A stretch of DNA of 64,000 nt from a virus. Lineage: Duplodnaviria > Heunggongvirae > Uroviricota > Caudoviricetes. Below, piece after piece: positions 1-6,977 of this stretch. Under the pieces are notes generated by a model. The model was not told the origin of the DNA, did no database searches, and was given only the letters and a program-made list of their open reading frames with translations. Numbering within the stretch: position 1 is the first letter of the stretch; every line of letters begins with the position of its first letter. Made by a program: the position numbers and the translations under genes. The DNA lies in IMG/VR virus record IMGVR_UViG_2617270980_000003; one strand, given 5' to 3'.

Positions 1-164
1 GCTTTCTGCCAGCATAACCACCCCAAAAATCATGGCGGGTCCATTATCTTTCTTCTTTATTCCGGTTGAACGTATATCCAGACTTACCCCTCTGTGCGTG
101 CTGCCATCAGAGTTTTTGCAGATAACATCTTCCTTGTATTCGAAAATAATGCGTACGACTTTAC

Positions 165-446
165 TCATCCTCTGGTCCTCGTTCTGTTTGGATAACTGAC
201 CCGGCGTCTAACCTCACGGCAGAACCGAATCATGGCATTAAAGGCTTCTTCCTCCGTCACCGCTTCCGGTATCCCCGGAACCAGTAACTGCTCCTGTTCA
301 TCACGTCCATGACGCGCCATAACCTCAATCACATGCCGTACCGTGGCAGGCTTTCCGGCAACTATCGGCAATGCACCTTCCGGCAGGACGTAACCAAACT
401 CAATAAGACCACTCGACCACGCCCATGCAATGAGATTTTTTTTCAC
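165..446 (-). CDS. hypothetical protein, Mu-like early region
   Basis: 93-aa ORF downstream of the B-like gene on the same strand; no family recognised. Confidence 0.4.
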   Translation of the reverse strand: MKKNLIAWAWSSGLIEFGYVLPEGALPIVAGKPATVRHVIEVMARHGRDEQEQLLVPGIPEAVTEEEAFNAMIRFCREVRRRVSYPNRTRTRG

Positions 447-447
447 C

Positions 448-714
448 TCACACCTCCCAGTAAACCGTGCAGCCGCTGATGCGGGTGGCCTTCACACGGC
501 GGCGCAGGCCGTTGGTCTGTATGGTGATTTCAATTTCACCGGTTCCCTGCACGTTGCCTACCGGCGGCGTGGTTTTCAGTGCAAAACGTTGCGGATAGCG
601 CTTACTGCGTTCCAGTACCGCACCGGCAAGTTCGGTCAGACGGCGCGCGCTGTTCAGGGAGTCGAATAAATTCATTTTGTTACCGCAGGATTGCATATTC
701 ATATAACACCTCAT
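448..714 (-). CDS. hypothetical protein, Mu-like early region (start may be internal)
   Basis: 88-aa ORF tightly packed with neighbours on the same strand; no family recognised. Confidence 0.35.
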   Translation of the reverse strand: MRCYMNMQSCGNKMNLFDSLNSARRLTELAGAVLERSKRYPQRFALKTTPPVGNVQGTGEIEITIQTNGLRRRVKATRISGCTVYWEV

Positions 715-942
715 TTAGCTGACTTGTTTCGCACCAACAGAACGGCATATTCCGCTGTAAACTTCTGTCGCACCTTCGCGATCAAGTCCGGCAGATATCA
801 CCATTCGTGTGCGGTCATTAAATTCAAAAAGTAAATCGCCACATTCTTTATTTTCGGCCAGTGAAATCACCTTCACGTTATCGAAATTAACCAGGTAAAA
901 GCGTCCGTAAATATCAGGAATATTAAATACCGCCATAATCAC
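715..942 (-). CDS. hypothetical protein, Mu-like early region
   Basis: 75-aa ORF immediately downstream of B with 4-nt overlap, operon-like packing. Confidence 0.4.
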   Translation of the reverse strand: MIMAVFNIPDIYGRFYLVNFDNVKVISLAENKECGDLLFEFNDRTRMVISAGLDREGATEVYSGICRSVGAKQVS

Positions 943-1880
943 ACCTGTGAGAGTAATTCAGGGTTGGTATAAACCTCTTTAAAGGCCGCATTAATATGTT
1001 TTTCTGTCAGCGCCGCGCCTTCACCGCTGGCGGTGAGCCACGCCTGGTTAAGCGTATGTGTCAGAACGCGTAACGCTCCCGGCTTTTCAGCGATAGCCTG
1101 CATGACGGCCAGCTCGGCCTCACCACTGATCCCCCACGCCATGGCAATGGCCAGCACATCCGCCTTTTTGGCCTTGCGAAGTTGTTTTGTACGGGCAAGA
1201 CGGCTGAACAGGCGCGATAAATCACCAAAGGCGCGGCGTCCACCTTTAAACAATCCGCGCGGGTTACCAATAAGCACCATCCCGATCCCCGTGGCGTCCT
1301 GAATTGCCCGGAGTTGCTCCAGACCGTCAATACCAAGATGATCCGCCTCATCCACAATCACCAGTCCACGCGTTCCCATCAGGCGACGGCGGATGGCGCG
1401 GGATAATGCCCCTTTGTTCGCGCGGGTGTAATCAATCCCCAGCGCATCGGCCAGCTCCAGCAGACACTCCGTGACGCTGGAGTGCGCGGGTGACAGGGTG
1501 ATCATCCAGGTGTTTGGTTGCTCCTGGCAGTAATTACGGGCAGTGGCCGTTTTACCCACACCCGGTACGCCCACAATAACGTTAATACAGCCCATCAGGC
1601 GAACCGCCTGAAACAGTGCGCGCAGCTCCTGGACTGTCTGAGTTTCCACAAACTGCGGCGGTTCCGGCAGTGCGCTTTGTTTATTCCAGTTCTCATACCA
1701 GGAGCGCAGGGAAGCAGCCACAGCAGCGTTATCGCCTTTATATTTTCCCTTACGGAAAGCCGATAATGTGCCGTCGGAAATTCCCGCCTCTCTGGCGATG
1801 GCATACTGCGTCAGTACGCCGCCATCAATAAGTTCATCAATGGTCTTGATTACATCGTTAATATCGGTCATATTATTCAC
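939..1880 (-). CDS. Mu B-like transposition/target-DNA activator ATPase (AAA+)
   Basis: 313 aa; Walker A GVPGVGKT and Walker B VIVDEADHL; collinear similarity to phage Mu B as recalled (PEPPxFVETQTV, KPGALR motifs). Confidence 0.9.
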   Translation of the reverse strand: MNNMTDINDVIKTIDELIDGGVLTQYAIAREAGISDGTLSAFRKGKYKGDNAAVAASLRSWYENWNKQSALPEPPQFVETQTVQELRALFQAVRLMGCINVIVGVPGVGKTATARNYCQEQPNTWMITLSPAHSSVTECLLELADALGIDYTRANKGALSRAIRRRLMGTRGLVIVDEADHLGIDGLEQLRAIQDATGIGMVLIGNPRGLFKGGRRAFGDLSRLFSRLARTKQLRKAKKADVLAIAMAWGISGEAELAVMQAIAEKPGALRVLTHTLNQAWLTASGEGAALTEKHINAAFKEVYTNPELLSQV

Positions 1881-1953
1881 CTCGCTTGAGACAGCATTCT
1901 CCGAGACTGAAACCTCAAATAACCTGAGTCACCCCTCGGGTTATTTTTTTATT

Positions 1954-4041
1954 TCAGGCCAGCGGATCACTTTCTTTTAATTTCGCTTCGAGCAGTTGCA
2001 ATCCCCGCTGGAAATTACGCTCGTATTCTTCATCAGGTTCATCGTCAGCGACCGGTTGCTGAACGGTCACCGTATTACCCACAGGGCGGTATATGTTTTC
2101 CAGCCAGGGCTCCTGCGGCTTGTGCTCCAGCACGTTGACAACCTCATCCTCGGCATCACGGATTTTTTCCTCTGCGCGTTTACGCATGCCTTTAAGGCGC
2201 TGCTGCTGTTTGTAGTATTCCGCGCTGACAGGGAAGGCTTCGCGTTTATTGCCGTCCCATACCGCCTCGCAAATCACGCTGCCATCCGGGCGGCGCACGG
2301 TAATTCGTTCGGCATCATGAATGTCATAGCTGATAAGTACCTTACGGCCATGCTCGTCACGCAGCTCGGGCGCGTAGTAAATATTATTCAGCCAGCGTAT
2401 TTCACAGCGTCTTACAGGGCGCTCCACCATCGGCCGGAACATATCCCGCAGTTCAACATCGGACAGCCATTCAATTTCCGTGTCCTCTTCCGCCAGGCGT
2501 TTTTTTCTGAACTCCGCCGGGCTGTAATGTTTACCGTTCGGCTTCATGGGTAATTCATCGTGCGGCCGGTTGTTGTACCACTCAACACCGTCACGAATGG
2601 CATCAATCAGTTCAGACCAGGACGGTAAATCACGCATCGCTGACTGCTGCCGGGCGTTCAGCCGTTTGCCCTGTTGCAGGGCACTGAATGCCGAGCGTAA
2701 ATCGCGGTTGGTTTTACGTAACGTCTCGCGATCTGCTCCTTTCCCGAAATAGGTGCGGTATTTACGGGCTATGCGCATCGGTAATGTGCGGTTAAGCCGT
2801 TCGATAATGCCCCGTCCCTGCGGATTACCGGCAATCCCTGTCGGGTGATTAATCCCCAGTCGTGGCAGTATCCCCACAATCTCCTTATCCAGGACGTCGG
2901 CGGTTTCCCCGGAGCCATTATCCGAGTAATACAGAAACGGTTTGCCATGATGGCGAATACCGTGCTGTATGGCACCGGCTACGGCGAAAACATTTTCAGC
3001 CAGGTCAAGGCTCCAGCCCACCACAAAGCGCGTGCCACCGTCGATAACAAAGGTCACTTCCGGTGCGAATGGCCGCCCGTGAACCGGGTGCGCGCATTTC
3101 AGCTTCATGCCGTGACCGTCACCAATCCAGACATAATTCACCGGCATTTTTGACCAGTCGCGGCGCGTGAATCCCTCAAGCTGGCGGTATTCACTGCCGG
3201 TAACCCGTCCTTTTTGTTTCACCACTTCCGGCAGTTTCTTCATTGCGCGGCGAATGGTGTCATAAGACGGCATGATATCGAGCATATAAGGCTCATCAGC
3301 GTGCCGGTGCTGCCATTCGGCAACAAAATCCTCGTAAGCCTCGGTCATTGGTCGGCCGTTTGACTGGCGATACTGCGCCAGAAATTCGGGCAACCAGTTA
3401 ATATCTTCGGCTTTTATTTCCTGGCGTTTACCTGGTGCCAGCAAAAGCAGGCGTTCAGCAGCGTTCTGTGCCTTATTAAAGGCCGCAATCCAGCGTTTCA
3501 GCGTGATTTCACTCAACACGCGACTGTTTCCCTTTCTGGCGTTCGCTATCTCAACCATTGCCACAATGCGCTCATCCAGTTGCGAGTGTGACAGGCGGTC
3601 AACGATGAACCGGATAGCTTTAGCGCAGCTGAAACCGGGTTGTTGCGTGAATTTCAGCACCTCACTGACGATCGCAATGCGTGCGTCTGCCACCTGGCGC
3701 TGGTTTTCAGTCAGGGCATTGAGGCGTTCGACCATCAGTTGTGGTGATCCGCGATATGCCTCCACCGCATCAACCACGGCAGACGAGCGTCTGGCCTTTG
3801 TCACCACCGGAGCCGGTGATTCATCGGCTTTTTGCGTCATCAGTTGCAGGGCATAACGTTCGCGTAATGCCTGCTGTGTCACTTCAGGTAAACAGTCAAT
3901 GCTGTATTCAAAACCTTTAGCGCCTTTCTTGCGGCGTCTGCTGGTTTCGCTGGTTGCATACTTCCTGATTGAATAGCGAACGCCTTGCTCCGTTCCCGGC
4001 ATCCCCGGTAATCCAACCAGTTCTTTGACTGAAGCAAACAT
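1954..4041 (-). CDS. Mu A-like DDE transposase
   Basis: 695 aa, directly upstream of the B-like gene and downstream of ner; Mu-transposase-like core region; position as in Mu. Confidence 0.88.
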   Translation of the reverse strand: MFASVKELVGLPGMPGTEQGVRYSIRKYATSETSRRRKKGAKGFEYSIDCLPEVTQQALRERYALQLMTQKADESPAPVVTKARRSSAVVDAVEAYRGSPQLMVERLNALTENQRQVADARIAIVSEVLKFTQQPGFSCAKAIRFIVDRLSHSQLDERIVAMVEIANARKGNSRVLSEITLKRWIAAFNKAQNAAERLLLLAPGKRQEIKAEDINWLPEFLAQYRQSNGRPMTEAYEDFVAEWQHRHADEPYMLDIMPSYDTIRRAMKKLPEVVKQKGRVTGSEYRQLEGFTRRDWSKMPVNYVWIGDGHGMKLKCAHPVHGRPFAPEVTFVIDGGTRFVVGWSLDLAENVFAVAGAIQHGIRHHGKPFLYYSDNGSGETADVLDKEIVGILPRLGINHPTGIAGNPQGRGIIERLNRTLPMRIARKYRTYFGKGADRETLRKTNRDLRSAFSALQQGKRLNARQQSAMRDLPSWSELIDAIRDGVEWYNNRPHDELPMKPNGKHYSPAEFRKKRLAEEDTEIEWLSDVELRDMFRPMVERPVRRCEIRWLNNIYYAPELRDEHGRKVLISYDIHDAERITVRRPDGSVICEAVWDGNKREAFPVSAEYYKQQQRLKGMRKRAEEKIRDAEDEVVNVLEHKPQEPWLENIYRPVGNTVTVQQPVADDEPDEEYERNFQRGLQLLEAKLKESDPLA

Positions 4042-4043
4042 AA

Positions 4044-4274
4044 TTACGCGACCTTACGAATGTAGCGGCTGGGCCAAATCTCCTCGGGCGGCACCCCCAG
4101 GCATTCCGCGATAATCCCCTCATACTTGGGAACATGGCGGTATACCGCGTTGTACAGATTGTTCTGACCCACGCCAGCTTTACGGGCCAGCGCCCTCATG
4201 CTTCCTTCTCTGGCTCTGACTTCCCCCAAAATTCTTTGAGGATGCCAATCAGGCTTAACTTCATTTCTCGCCAT
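4044..4274 (-). CDS. ner: Ner-like DNA-binding regulator (Ner/Nlp family)
   Basis: 76 aa; DWHPxxI...EEIWPSRY pattern matches Mu Ner / E. coli Nlp as recalled; divergent from repressor gene. Confidence 0.85.
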   Translation of the reverse strand: MARNEVKPDWHPQRILGEVRAREGSMRALARKAGVGQNNLYNAVYRHVPKYEGIIAECLGVPPEEIWPSRYIRKVA

Positions 4275-4458
4275 GATTCATCTATCCTAAAAAGTTACGA
4301 AATTTGATAACTAAACTTAGTTATCAAGTTTGATATAAGTATTGATCCACCTCTGCTTCATGTAAAGCAAAAAAACATCTTTCTTTTGTCTATTGTGGAT
4401 CAATGGTTGCTGACAACACTAAAAGTTAATAATTTCAAATTGATAGGAAGAAAAGAAA
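4275..4458. promoter_or_regulatory. divergent early promoter/operator region between ner and repressor; near-perfect 24-bp palindrome TTGATAACTAAACTTAGTTATCAA at 4304-4327 plus further TTGATA half-sites
   Basis: Palindrome and TTGATA repeats read directly; location between divergently transcribed regulator genes. Confidence 0.5.
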
Positions 4459-5004
4459 ATGAACAAGCAAACAACAACATCTCTTTCTTTTCCTGGTGGT
4501 AGAAAAGAAAGCATTGCTGAGCGTCTGAAAAGGCTGATTGGCTCCCGCAGCGTCAGAGCTGCAGCAAGAGATTGGGGGCTTTCATTTTCAACACTAAACA
4601 ATTATCTGTCTCGTGGCACTGAGCCATCCTTAAGTGTCGCCCTTCAGATTGCGTCTATCGAAGGAGTAAGTGTTGAGTGGCTATGTGGATTCAGTGATGC
4701 ATCACAAGTGAATCGGTGTGAGATCAAGGAAAATCAAGATGAAAGCAAGAAGATAATTATGACGATTATCAGCGCACTTGATGAAAAAGACTTAGAGCAG
4801 CTATCGAAAAATTTGGTTCTGAATGGAGCCAAGTACTTAGCTCGGTTGTTAGAGCCTGAAAATCAAGATCTAATCCGCTTAGAAGGAAGGAAAAGAATAG
4901 CTGCATTACAGCTTGAAGGTATGTCTGACGAACGCGTCAGAGAGATTTTGGAAGAAACTGAGAGAAGTCGCAAATCTAACGCGGTAGAACCAAAAGCGGG
5001 TTAA
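4459..5004 (+). CDS. prophage repressor (HTH; not similar to Mu c itself)
   Basis: 181 aa at the Mu c position, transcribed toward the prophage end; N-terminal HTH-like segment (WGLSFSTLNNYLSRG). Confidence 0.65.
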   Translation: MNKQTTTSLSFPGGRKESIAERLKRLIGSRSVRAAARDWGLSFSTLNNYLSRGTEPSLSVALQIASIEGVSVEWLCGFSDASQVNRCEIKENQDESKKIIMTIISALDEKDLEQLSKNLVLNGAKYLARLLEPENQDLIRLEGRKRIAALQLEGMSDERVREILEETERSRKSNAVEPKAG

Positions 5005-5069
5005 TAGCATTAGCCCGCATTTTGCACTATATCGAGTATTTCGCATTGTTTGGAACGCCTTAAAAGACT

Positions 5070-5249
5070 AAAACCACAGTATCAAATGAGTTGCCGATTT
5101 TATAATAAATGACTAATTATTGCACAATCGGTATCAAATAGACCTTATCCGCACATCTAGCCATCACCTGTTTTATTTCAGTATCTTACAGGTGATTTCA
5201 CCTCCTTTCACTAAAACCCTTGTCGGTATCAAATGATTCACCTGGTTAT
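5070..5249. repeat. Mu-like prophage left terminal region with three copies of a GTATCAAAT(G/A) motif (candidate transposase-binding sites)
   Basis: Motif copies near 5077-5087, 5131-5141 and 5227-5237, between the repressor stop and the J junction. Confidence 0.45.
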
Positions 5250-6977
5250 AATACTCACGCAGCGGAACAGGCGCTGGCGCAGCGTCGGCAGCTTCAGCCC
5301 CCACACGCTGTATCCGGCAACGCCGTCAGGAACACGGCTAACTTTCACCTTCACGCCGTCGGTGACGGACTGAACCTCCACGCTGACCGGATTGCCACTT
5401 CCGTCAACCAGGCTTATCAGCCTGGTGCCGGAGGATGGCAGCGTGATTTCACGGTCGAGCGTCAGCGTCCGGGTCTGGCTGTTTACCGCCAGCACGCGCC
5501 CGCCGATGCTGATACCGGCATAGTCATCATCACAGATTTCAATGACATCACCCGGCACATGGCGAAGCCCTTCTGCGCCCACGCTGAAGTCCACGGTCTG
5601 CGTTTCCAGCAGTTCTGTTTTAATCAGCCACAGCCCGGCGCGGTGTGCCTGCCCCCGGCTGGTACAGCCAAAAGCATCCATCTTCGTGACGTTACGACCG
5701 TAACGGGCAATGGCCTGCGTATCCTCCACAAGCTCTGTTGCCGTCTCCCAGCCGTTGTTCGGGTCAATCCAGTTCACCTCAACGGCATTATGGCGGTCTT
5801 TCAGGGCGCTAAAGCTGTAGCGGAACGGCGCGCCATCATCCGGCATCACCACATTACTGCGGTTATAGGTCCACACCTTATCCGACGGTCGGTCCTGCAC
5901 GAACGTCAGCGTCTGCCCGTTCCATACCGGCATACAGCGCATCGCCGAGCAGAAATCACTGAGCACATCCCACGCCTTGCGCTGTGTGGTCAGGTACGCA
6001 TTACAGGTGATGCGCGGCTCCGTACCGCCAAAACCGTCCGGCACTGACTGGTCGCAGTACTGGCCGATGACATACAGCGCCCATTTATCCACATCCGCCA
6101 CACCAAGACGTTTCCCCATGCCGTAGCGTGGATGGGTCAGCATATCCCACAGACACCAGGCCATGTTATTGCTGTATGCTGGCTTAAACGTTCCGTCCCA
6201 GATACCGCTGTATTGCCGCGTCTGCGGGTTATAGTTCGACGGCACCTGCAGAATACGCCCGCGCAGATGATAATTACGGCTCACCTGCTGGCTGCCGAAC
6301 TGCTCCGAATCCACCTGCACGCCGACCAGTGCCGTGTTCGGGTAGCACTGTTTCACATCGATGATTTCGGTGTATGACGACCAGAGCGTTTTGTTCTGCA
6401 GCTGGTCTGTGGTGCTGTCCGGTGTCATCCTGCGCATCCGGATATTGAACGGGCGCGGCGGCAGGTTATCCACCACCACCGAGGCCAGATACTGCGACGT
6501 GGTTTTGCCCTTAATGGTGATGTCTTTTTCTGTCACCCAGCCACCGTTACGTTGTATCTGAACCAGCAGGCGGACTTCCGACGGATTCCGGTCACCCTTT
6601 GAGGTGGTTTCCACCAGTGCCTGCACACCGAAGGTAAAGCGCAGACGGTCGATGTTTGCAGACGTGATGGTCCGGGTGATCGGCGTGTCGTATTTCACTT
6701 CCGTACCCAGCACCGTCTCGGAACCGGAGGATTCAAATCCCTCCGGCGGTGTCTGCTCCTGCTCACCTGCCCGGAACACCACCGTGACACCGGAGATGTT
6801 GGTATTCCCCTCACTGTCCAGCACCGGTGTACTGTTCAGCAGCACGCTTTTTAATCCATCCACCGGACCTTCAACCGGCCCTTCGCTGATGGCATCGATC
6901 ACACTCAGTAACTGCGTGGATTTCAGGTTATCCTTCGCTTCGCGCGGGGTATGCCCCTTACTGCTGCCTTTACCCAT
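5250..6977 (-). pseudogene. J: lambda J-like tail tip/host specificity protein, 3'-truncated by the Mu-like insertion
   Basis: N-terminal ~576 aa near-identical to lambda J as recalled (MGKGSSKGHTPREAKDNLKSTQLL... LFRCVSI); similarity ends and a stop follows within 3 codons at the Mu-like end. Confidence 0.9.

Follow-up and report, generated by a model that had tools for sequence, protein, structure and literature searches.

The window, as the whole stretch of analysed DNA is called here, spans 64,000 nucleotides of a Caudoviricetes virus record (IMG/VR IMGVR_UViG_2617270980_000003), and positions 1-5250 form the left end of an Escherichia coli Mu-like transposable prophage lying inside a lambda-type J gene. 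Homology to 12 E. coli genomes breaks at 5250/5251, with J gene sequence running from 5251, and a near-identical element occupies different chromosomal loci in these genomes (for example citD, paaA, xdhA, sgrR and a P2 capsid gene). The end of homology at 5250, together with a different site in each of the 12 genomes, identifies window positions 1-5250 as the left end of an active Mu-like transposable prophage, and this prophage sits in the tail gene (J) of another prophage. The segment contains the following features:

939-1880: MuB ATPase (Pfam match)
1954-4041: Mu-type transposase (Pfam Mu-transpos_C and HTH_Tnp_Mu_1), downstream of ner
4044-4274, minus strand: ner, 76 aa (Pfam HTH_35, 1e-21; PDB 1NER, 3.7e-13; EnrR 7F9H, 2.9e-11)
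4459-5004, plus strand: c-like lysogenic repressor (c), 181 aa, with an XRE-type HTH N-terminal domain and a conserved C-terminal domain
5076-5250, minus strand: prophage left end, with its terminus at 5250 and (C/T)ATTTGATAC(C/T) repeats at 5223-5236, 5128-5141 and 5076-5089

The assignment to a Mu-like element in the initial annotation is borne out by a left end that carries a MuA-type transposase, the MuB ATPase, ner and c (with Pfam matches for MuA, MuB and Ner), by terminal att-end repeats, and by many and varied insertion sites in the 12 E. coli genomes. In a complete 38-kb copy (L141), the genes follow the full Mu order, with Gam, Mor, Com, and head and tail genes all represented; this copy carries three ATTTGATAC(C/T) repeats at its left end and two inverted copies at its right end. 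The transposase-binding repeats of the left end contain TTGATA at 5080, 5132 and 5227 (minus strand), and are an element distinct from the TTGATA copies considered below.

The 181-aa repressor matches phrog_3037 ('transcriptional repressor') over its full length (4.5e-60), and finds only weak HTH_3 and Phage_CI_repr matches in Pfam. It had been described as an uncharacterised repressor unrelated to Mu c. The lack of relationship holds, in that no sequence similarity to Mu c was found by BLASTP (E=1.7) and no HTH_Tnp_Mu_1 match in Pfam, but the protein is no orphan: its relatives are widespread in Mu-like phages, for example in the Yersinia phages vB_YpM_5/6 and in Edwardsiella and Morganella prophages. 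A search for homologues with a solved structure returned none.

A 184-bp gap (4275-4458) of 28% G+C separates the ner start codon (4274, minus strand) from the ATG (4459) of the gene for the 181-aa HTH protein. The 24-bp near-perfect palindrome reported at 4304-4327 is present there exactly as TTGATAACTAAACTTAGTTATCAA, with 11 of 12 positions symmetric and one mismatched pair at the centre, and it does lie between the divergent c-like and ner genes. TTGATA occurs in the gap four times, at 4304(+), 4322(-), 4330(+) and 4440(+). These elements can be arranged as follows:

4294-4337: proposed Ner operator array of 44 bp, [GTTACG-AAATTT-GATAAC]-TAAACTTA-[GTTATC-AAGTTT-GATATA]
4300-4331: extended palindrome, with 12-bp arms AAATTTGATAAC and GTTATCAAGTTT (11 of 12 matched) around an 8-bp spacer
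4304-4327: the palindrome of the initial annotation, TTGATAACTAAACTTAGTTATCAA, which comprises Ner boxes 2 and 3 and the 8-bp spacer between them
4440-4445, plus strand: fourth copy of TTGATA, a short way ahead of the ribosome-binding site of c

The array consists of four hexamers (GTTACG 4294-4299, GATAAC 4306-4311, GTTATC 4320-4325 and GATATA 4332-4337) spaced at 12-14-bp intervals in alternating orientation, with T-rich bases ahead of each, so that the family box reads TTGATAA. The palindrome arises because boxes 2 and 3 are inverted with respect to each other. The extended palindrome ends 25 nt from the ner ATG and the array 19 nt from it; an alternative reading from a repeat search has 15-nt arms at 4300-4314 and 4317-4331 that are 93% complementary. 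The operator of a Ner protein would be expected directly upstream of ner, in the form of 11-12-bp units separated by a 6-8-bp spacer over some 30-50 bp in total. Here, units of 12+8+12 bp within a 44-bp array lie directly upstream of an HTH_35-type ner that is followed by MuA and MuB, and the same [6-N6-6]-N8-[6-N6-6] layout is found upstream of ner in Edwardsiella and Morganella prophages.

The palindrome is a real feature; it is conserved and, taken by itself, moderately improbable as a product of chance. A palindrome with 11 or more of 12 positions matched and a spacer of at most 10 appeared in 28 of 2000 dinucleotide-preserving shuffles of the gap (p ~0.014), whereas four TTGATA copies appeared in none of 2000. 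The palindrome 12-mer occurs once in the complete 38-kb prophage, and the arms of the extended palindrome are perfect (12/12) in one IMG/VR copy (L009). The GATAAC and GTTATC hexamers, and with them the outer 8-bp arms, are invariant in all E. coli copies; the 8-bp spacer varies, being TAAACTTA, CAAAGTTA or TAAATTTT, and box 4 (4332-4337) is degenerate or lost in STEC1587 and M18. It is very unlikely that the palindrome is a chance product of AT-rich DNA or that the TTGATA sites belong to the transposition machinery, as MuA end-type sites or an enhancer. The low G+C content of the gap and the shuffles with an equally good palindrome would allow the former; it is opposed by hexamers that stay invariant while the spacers drift and by a layout that recurs in other genera. 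The resemblance of the att-end repeat core ATTTGATAC(C/T) to AAATTTGATAAC would allow the latter, but JCKP02, WS1933D and L100 share the ATTTGATAC att repeats while their arrays are of CGGATAA or CGGATAT type and lack TTGATA. Since the att repeats are the same where the boxes differ, the boxes do not track the transposase ends, and a role for TTGATA as a transposase site was rejected.

Promoters in the gap were predicted by matches to the sigma-70 consensus:

4338-4366, minus strand: predicted early promoter (Pe), with -35 TTTACA (4366-4361), a 17-nt spacer and -10 AATACT (4343-4338)
4407-4433, plus strand: weak candidate promoter for c (Pc), with -35 TTGCTG (4407-4412), a 15-nt spacer and -10 AATAAT (4428-4433), an 8/12 match from a relaxed scan

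In a strict scan, Pe on the minus strand was the only promoter in the area, where shuffled sequences average 2.6, and no plus-strand promoter for c was found. Pe is a consensus match only, and its start is inferred to lie near 4331, which is the edge of the array; on this basis the extended palindrome would span about +1 to +32 and the array about -6 to +38. The -35 and -10 hexamers of Pe are conserved in JCKP02, and M18 has a Pe of unrelated sequence at the equivalent place, with the predicted start again at the palindrome edge. In both M18 and JCKP02, the geometry of a predicted (consensus-match) promoter start at the array edge is the same as in the window, and M18 has a better plus-strand promoter at the place analogous to Pc.

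As the palindrome is predicted to be transcribed, it could act as RNA, forming a 5′-terminal hairpin on the early transcript that makes the message more stable or tunes the translation of ner. The 62-nt leader does fold with a 10-bp hairpin (-10.7 kcal/mol), but the z-score is only -1.7, with 13 of 200 shuffles folding as well, at Ner-2-type loci the repeats in this position are direct, not inverted, and the fold is a different one, and no compensatory changes were seen. Such a role is most improbable, and it was rejected for its weak z-score and lack of conservation.

Natural recombinants separate the contributions of the two regulators. Two E. coli prophages, Z1825 and M18, encode a Ner that is 100% identical to that of the window and a c that is only 39-40% identical, and the outer palindrome arms TTGATAAC and GTTATCAA are unchanged in both; in M18, DNA homology with the window ends at 4331, the palindrome edge. 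The palindrome arms are identical across three c types that are 39-95% identical to each other. The converse combination is found in E. coli JCKP02 and IMG/VR L145, whose c has nearly the recognition helix of the window (SFSTLNNYLTRG vs window ...SRG) and is ~80% identical to it over residues 16-80, and whose Ner is of the Yersinia-phage type (51-55% identical to the window Ner). In these loci, positions 4299-4331 are replaced by repeats of CGGATAA type, GTTATC-N6-GATAAC-N7-GGATAAT-N7-CGGATAAA, and the sequence is alignable with the window from 4332 onward, including ATTGATCCAC, the -35 and TGGATCA.

This pattern extends to 43 loci (the window and 42 relatives from E. coli, Yersinia phage vB_YpM_5, Edwardsiella, Morganella and IMG/VR) that have the ner / gap / c layout. 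Each gap was split at a nearly universal AGTATTGATC anchor in the Pe -10 region into a ner-side (array) block and a c-side block. Across these loci, identity of the array block follows 40 + 0.47 x Ner identity + 0.04 x c identity, and that of the c-side block 31 + 0.03 x Ner identity + 0.57 x c identity. The partial Mantel correlation of the array is 0.76 with Ner given c (0 of 2000 permutations) and 0.07 with c given Ner, and that of the c-side block, to the right of the Pe -10, is 0.75 with c (0 of 2000 permutations) and 0.07 with Ner. In the 46 pairs with Ner at least 90% and c less than 60% identical, the array is 91% and the c-side block 62% identical. The array therefore co-varies with Ner and not with the other regulator, as a Ner operator would, and it is physically linked to ner. 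The correlation is best taken as supportive rather than decisive, because recombination at the AGTATTGATC anchor beside ner would give the same linkage without function.

The distribution of the window-type array was also surveyed in IMG/VR. An exact scan for TTGATAAC-N8-GTTATCAA returned 40 loci, with ner nearby only in four E. coli Mu-like contigs; the remaining loci are compatible with chance at the size of the database. A word-indexed homologue search with Ner gave only two clusters, without intermediate relatives, which implies that the window Ner type is essentially restricted to E. coli, and a scan of contigs by Ner alignment retrieved mostly host nlp/sfsB-like genes, with MuA downstream in only 8 of 84 loci.

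The initial annotation had proposed the palindrome and the TTGATA half-sites as operators of the 181-aa repressor. On this reading, a dimer of the XRE-type protein would bind them and shut off Pe in the prophage. There are reasons to consider this assignment: the palindrome is part of the switch region between c and ner and directly follows the predicted Pe -10, palindromes are the usual targets of XRE/CI-type dimers, one of the four TTGATA copies is close to the start of c, and the c helix core STLNNY and the box core GATAA are both conserved across types, so that a shared specificity is conceivable. However, the palindrome is retained where c has been exchanged for a 39-40% identical protein and is replaced in JCKP02 and L145, where the c helix is kept and Ner differs, and the array tracks Ner (0.76) and not c (0.07) over the 43 loci. 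The arms of 8-12 bp around a variable 8-bp spacer would place half-sites ~14-20 bp apart, which is unusual for a CI-type dimer, and a better operator candidate is available in the repeat pair, different for each c type, on either side of the Pe -35. Moreover, operators of c would be expected to overlap the -35/-10 core of the lytic promoter and to change along with the repressor in a swap. The palindrome (+1 to +32) lies outside this core, only box 4 of the array reaches -6, and the palindrome does not change with c. Assignment of the palindrome to the lysogenic repressor is accordingly unlikely. Judged by sequence comparison, the palindrome is probably the core of an operator for Ner and not for c, with a probability of about 0.7.

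Further support comes from the correspondence between the recognition helix of Ner and the class of box. The helix NNLYNAV, found in the window lineage only, pairs with TTGATAA boxes; D(S/T)LKNAL, found in many genera, pairs with CGGATAA boxes; and STLKNAL (in L154) pairs with GCTAAG, which resembles the CTAAGT repeats of Mu, whose helix is TTLANAL. The varying Ner residue (Asn38 in the window, Asp elsewhere) aligns with Arg47 of EnrR, a residue that contacts a base in the EnrR-DNA crystal structure (PMC9023278). EnrR Arg55, His56 and Asn51 are conserved in the window Ner. Because the box sequence follows the start of the Ner helix, the TTGATA half-site of the initial annotation appears to be this lineage's form of a family-wide Ner box; the co-variation of helix and box comes from few independent lineages, the TTGATAA class being a single one.

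The Ner proteins of phages Mu and D108 autoregulate the early genes and commit the phage to ordered lytic growth. Their binding sites are said to have been footprinted, in work by Tolias and DuBow from 1985 and 1986 and by Kukolj and co-workers from 1989. In the D108 sequence (L006) the repeats at 996-1025, CCGTGAGCTAC-TTTATAGC-GTAGCTCACGG (11+8+11 bp), end 24 nt before ner, and in the Mu sequence (L005) those at 1029-1058, AGCTAGCTAAGT-TTTTAC-ACTTAGTTAAAT (12+6+12 bp), lie downstream of a TTTACA -35; we take these to be the footprinted Ner sites. Like the D108 operator, the window palindrome is an inverted repeat of ~30 bp with an 8-bp A/T-rich spacer, located 24-25 nt from the ner ATG and between the early promoter (here the predicted Pe) and ner. 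Unlike D108, its arm is of unrelated sequence (AAATTTGATAAC vs CCGTGAGCTAC), two further boxes flank the palindrome to make a 44-bp array, and the c repressor is XRE-type where that of D108 is Mu-type; the Ner proteins are 41% identical. A published study of the D108 Ner operator is cited in the literature, where Ner is also described as the regulator of the early transposase operon.

The Mu operator is likewise located downstream of an early promoter with a TTTACA -35 and upstream of ner, its Ner is 43% identical to that of the window, and the TAACTAA heptamer at the centre of the window palindrome agrees with the Mu half-site TTTAACTAAGT. In contrast to Mu, the conserved and presumably contacted bases here are the outer GATAAC, the central CTAA varies among E. 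coli copies, and the 12+8+12-bp spacing differs from the 12+6+12-bp, CTAAGT-containing repeats of Mu. In Mu, Pc faces Pe, so that Ner blocks both; the predicted Pc of the window, by contrast, appears to be divergent from Pe and ~70 bp away.

EnrR of Edwardsiella (PDB 7F9H/7F9I) belongs to the same family as the window Ner (2.9e-11). It is a monomer that pairs up on short AT-rich palindromes with an ATAA-type half-site, AATAAATNATTTATT, cross-contacting its partner on the DNA (PMC9023278). EnrR differs in being a domesticated, nucleoid-associated regulator and in accepting spacers of no more than ~3 bp, where the boxes of the window are 12-14 bp apart, and its Arg47 corresponds to Asn38 in the window Ner.

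The likely operators of c lie elsewhere in the gap, and the two candidate half-sites are the following:

4341-4350: left arm ATTGATCCAC, candidate c half-site inside the Pe -10/spacer, containing GATC
4395-4404: right arm GTGGATCAAT, candidate c half-site 54 bp from the left arm and 29 bp upstream of the Pe -35

Together, ATTGATCCAC and GTGGATCAAT form a perfect 10-bp inverted repeat that flanks the Pe -35 and is likely, from sequence and position, to constitute the c operators. The left arm overlaps the Pe core; the right arm abuts the weak Pc and is centred ~40 bp upstream of its putative start, so that a repressor bound there could also stimulate its own promoter. In other c types, type-specific repeat pairs ~50-56 bp apart are found at the equivalents of 4341-4350 and 4395-4404. 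For example, Morganella L077, which has a window-like c helix, carries the pair ATTGAACCCA/TGGGTTCAAT, and Morganella L066, with the same Ner and array as L077 and a different c, carries CCAAATTAGGACT/AGTCCTGATTTGG; vB_YpM_5 and Edwardsiella anguillarum have direct CTACAAAAG repeats at these places. For Z1825 and M18, a search at a stringency of 10-mers with one mismatch gave no clear c-type repeat pair. Almost every c type has the ATTGATC portion of the left arm, which falls on the Pe -10. By eye, no match to the IHF site WATCAANNNNTTR was found in 4275-4458, and there is no canonical one between the c arms.

The candidate arms resemble the operators O1-O3 of Mu c, which flank and overlap Pe in the c-ner gap: by position, 4341-4350 corresponds to O2 (inside the Pe core) and 4395-4404 to O1 (upstream). 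The repressor differs in being of another fold family from the winged-helix Mu c, and so it cannot share a DNA-binding domain with the transposase, as Mu c does with MuA domain I-alpha. In Mu, c bound at O3 overlaps the Ner site, and an overlap of this kind may be considered for the window, with Ner and c binding overlapping parts of 4294-4350. Box 4 (4332-4337) lies directly beside the Pe -10 and the left c-type arm (4341-4350), and the TTGAT pentamer, with six copies in 142 bp, is common to the boxes and the c-type arms (ATTGATCCAC). Against such sharing, the array hardly depends on the type of c, and TTGAT in the left arm may be promoter sequence, given that ATTGATC is near-universal and lies on the Pe -10; a shared operator is quite improbable. 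The locus may also be compared with the lambda OR region. Both loci have a divergent pair of a repressor and a Cro-like gene with the operators of a lysis-lysogeny switch between them, but CI and Cro share three operators in lambda, whereas here the comparison indicates separate and independently exchangeable sets of sites for Ner and c.

A mechanism can be proposed in which Ner binds the array and c the inverted repeat. Transcription from Pe would start at about 4331 and read through the array into ner, A and B. As Ner accumulates, several monomers would occupy the boxes and block initiation or clearance at Pe, resulting in autoregulation of ner and the transposase genes and in commitment to ordered lytic growth. 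The lysogenic repressor would act on the other module, ATTGATCCAC and GTGGATCAAT (4341-4350 and 4395-4404), from where it could shut down Pe, possibly by forming a small DNA loop, and could stimulate or autoregulate the transcription of c.

More tentatively, and at somewhat less than even odds, the switch as a whole, in this Mu-like family common among enterobacteria, may consist of two independently exchangeable cassettes joined at the universal AGTATTGATC anchor, the first comprising ner and the Ner boxes and the second the XRE-type c and its split inverted repeat. Under such an organisation, the choice between TTGATAA, CGGATAA and GCTAAG boxes would depend on the two or three residues with which the Ner recognition helix begins (N38-N39-x-Y41 vs D-S/T-x-K vs S-T), and the repeats of the second cassette, ~50-56 bp apart around the Pe -35, would imply repression through a very small loop or wrap, together with control of Pc. 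Reassortment of the cassettes would then generate new immunity and anti-immunity types.

A Cro-like protein that autoregulates an early promoter is textbook biology, and the locus adds one more instance to an established type of switch. To our knowledge, Ner operators have been mapped biochemically only in Mu and D108, and the window with its 42 relatives offers a testable recognition code for the Ner/HTH_35 family, including the host regulators SfsB/Nlp and EnrR. The alignments also suggest that, in Mu-like phages with XRE-type repressors, the sites for Ner and c reside in separate modules that can be reshuffled. For experiments, the comparison changes the protein to be used: the EMSA or footprinting on the palindrome that had been suggested with the 181-aa repressor would be carried out with Ner, and the repressor directed to 4341-4350 and 4395-4404 instead.

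Two further elements lie towards c. The TTGATA at 4440-4445 is possibly a solitary Ner box near the start of Pc; its counterpart in JCKP02 and Z1825 is GATAAG or GTTATG. The second is a family of short repeats:

4379-4388 (plus), 4450-4458 (minus), 4483-4492 (plus) and 4502-4511 (minus): four copies of CTTTCTTTT(C/G), conserved in all immunity types

Within the 38-kb prophage the CTTTCTTTT repeats are unique to the 4379-4511 region. They resemble the CTTTT(C/T) repeats visible in the Mu enhancer/operator and are candidate transposition enhancer sites for the N-terminal domain of MuA.

The start of the repressor gene c is flanked by short inverted repeats that extend inside the gene, and further repeats are present at the left end of the Mu-like prophage, which is itself inserted within a tail gene of another prophage.

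Repeats of the Mu-like prophage and the gene interrupted by it
4379-4388, 4450-4458, 4483-4492 and 4502-4511: CTTTCTTTT(C/G), present four times as two inverted pairs
5223-5236, 5128-5141 and 5076-5089, minus strand: (C/T)ATTTGATAC(C/T)(G/A), three direct repeats, presumed L1-L3 transposase-binding sites
5238-6977, minus strand: truncated host-specificity tail gene J, from a lambda-like prophage

The CTTTCTTTT(C/G) copies are found nowhere else in the 38-kb prophage, and are conserved islands amid immunity regions that have otherwise diverged. They are similar to the operator/enhancer repeats of Mu, CTTTT(C/T). The Mu N-terminal DNA-binding domain is kept in the transposase and is absent from c, and the repeats may therefore be the transposition enhancer.

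The predicted -10 of Pe, the early promoter directed toward ner, is included in AGTATTGATC(C/T)A (4338-4350), a sequence that is nearly unchanged at the equivalent place in at least 40 loci from several genera and across Ner and c types. Its position is the border between two exchangeable blocks (the ner-side array and the c-side sequence of the ner-c gap), and it may function as a recombination anchor. Each arm of the candidate c operator possesses a GATC (Dam) site, at 4344-4347 and 4398-4401, as do both arms in the related E. coli prophage JCKP02; the arms of a Morganella locus (L077) are without the GATC pair. It is conceivable that repressor binding is coupled to the methylation state of this operator.

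The three left-end repeats are spaced by 95 and 52 bp. Two inverted copies of their core, ATTTGATAC, are present near the right terminus of L141 (38514-38558), a full prophage copy in E. coli S1-CAM-01-A. The hexamer TTGATA, highlighted in the initial annotation, is enriched over the whole 64-kb window (57 copies versus 32 ± 5.5 in shuffles), and its matches at 5080, 5132 and 5227 are explained by their location within the left-end repeats. Loci cited for comparison of the termini are window 5250 and the related loci L001 and L100. The left-end terminal dinucleotide at 5250 is TA (5'-TATAACCAGG), as in the M18 and STEC1587 copies, while the left terminus of Z1825 and of a copy borne by an Stx phage has the canonical TG (5'-TGTAACCAGG).

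An IS5-family element, ISKpn26, resides in the early region of L141 (8635-9615); some copies of this prophage type may therefore be non-inducible.

The junction between the Mu-like prophage and J is at 5250/5251. The J ORF specifies 579 aa before a stop, entering the Mu end by 12 nt, and the remaining half of the gene must be outside the window, before its first nucleotide. The annotations of Stx phages LC727881 and LC727895 include a comparable phage-in-phage insertion.
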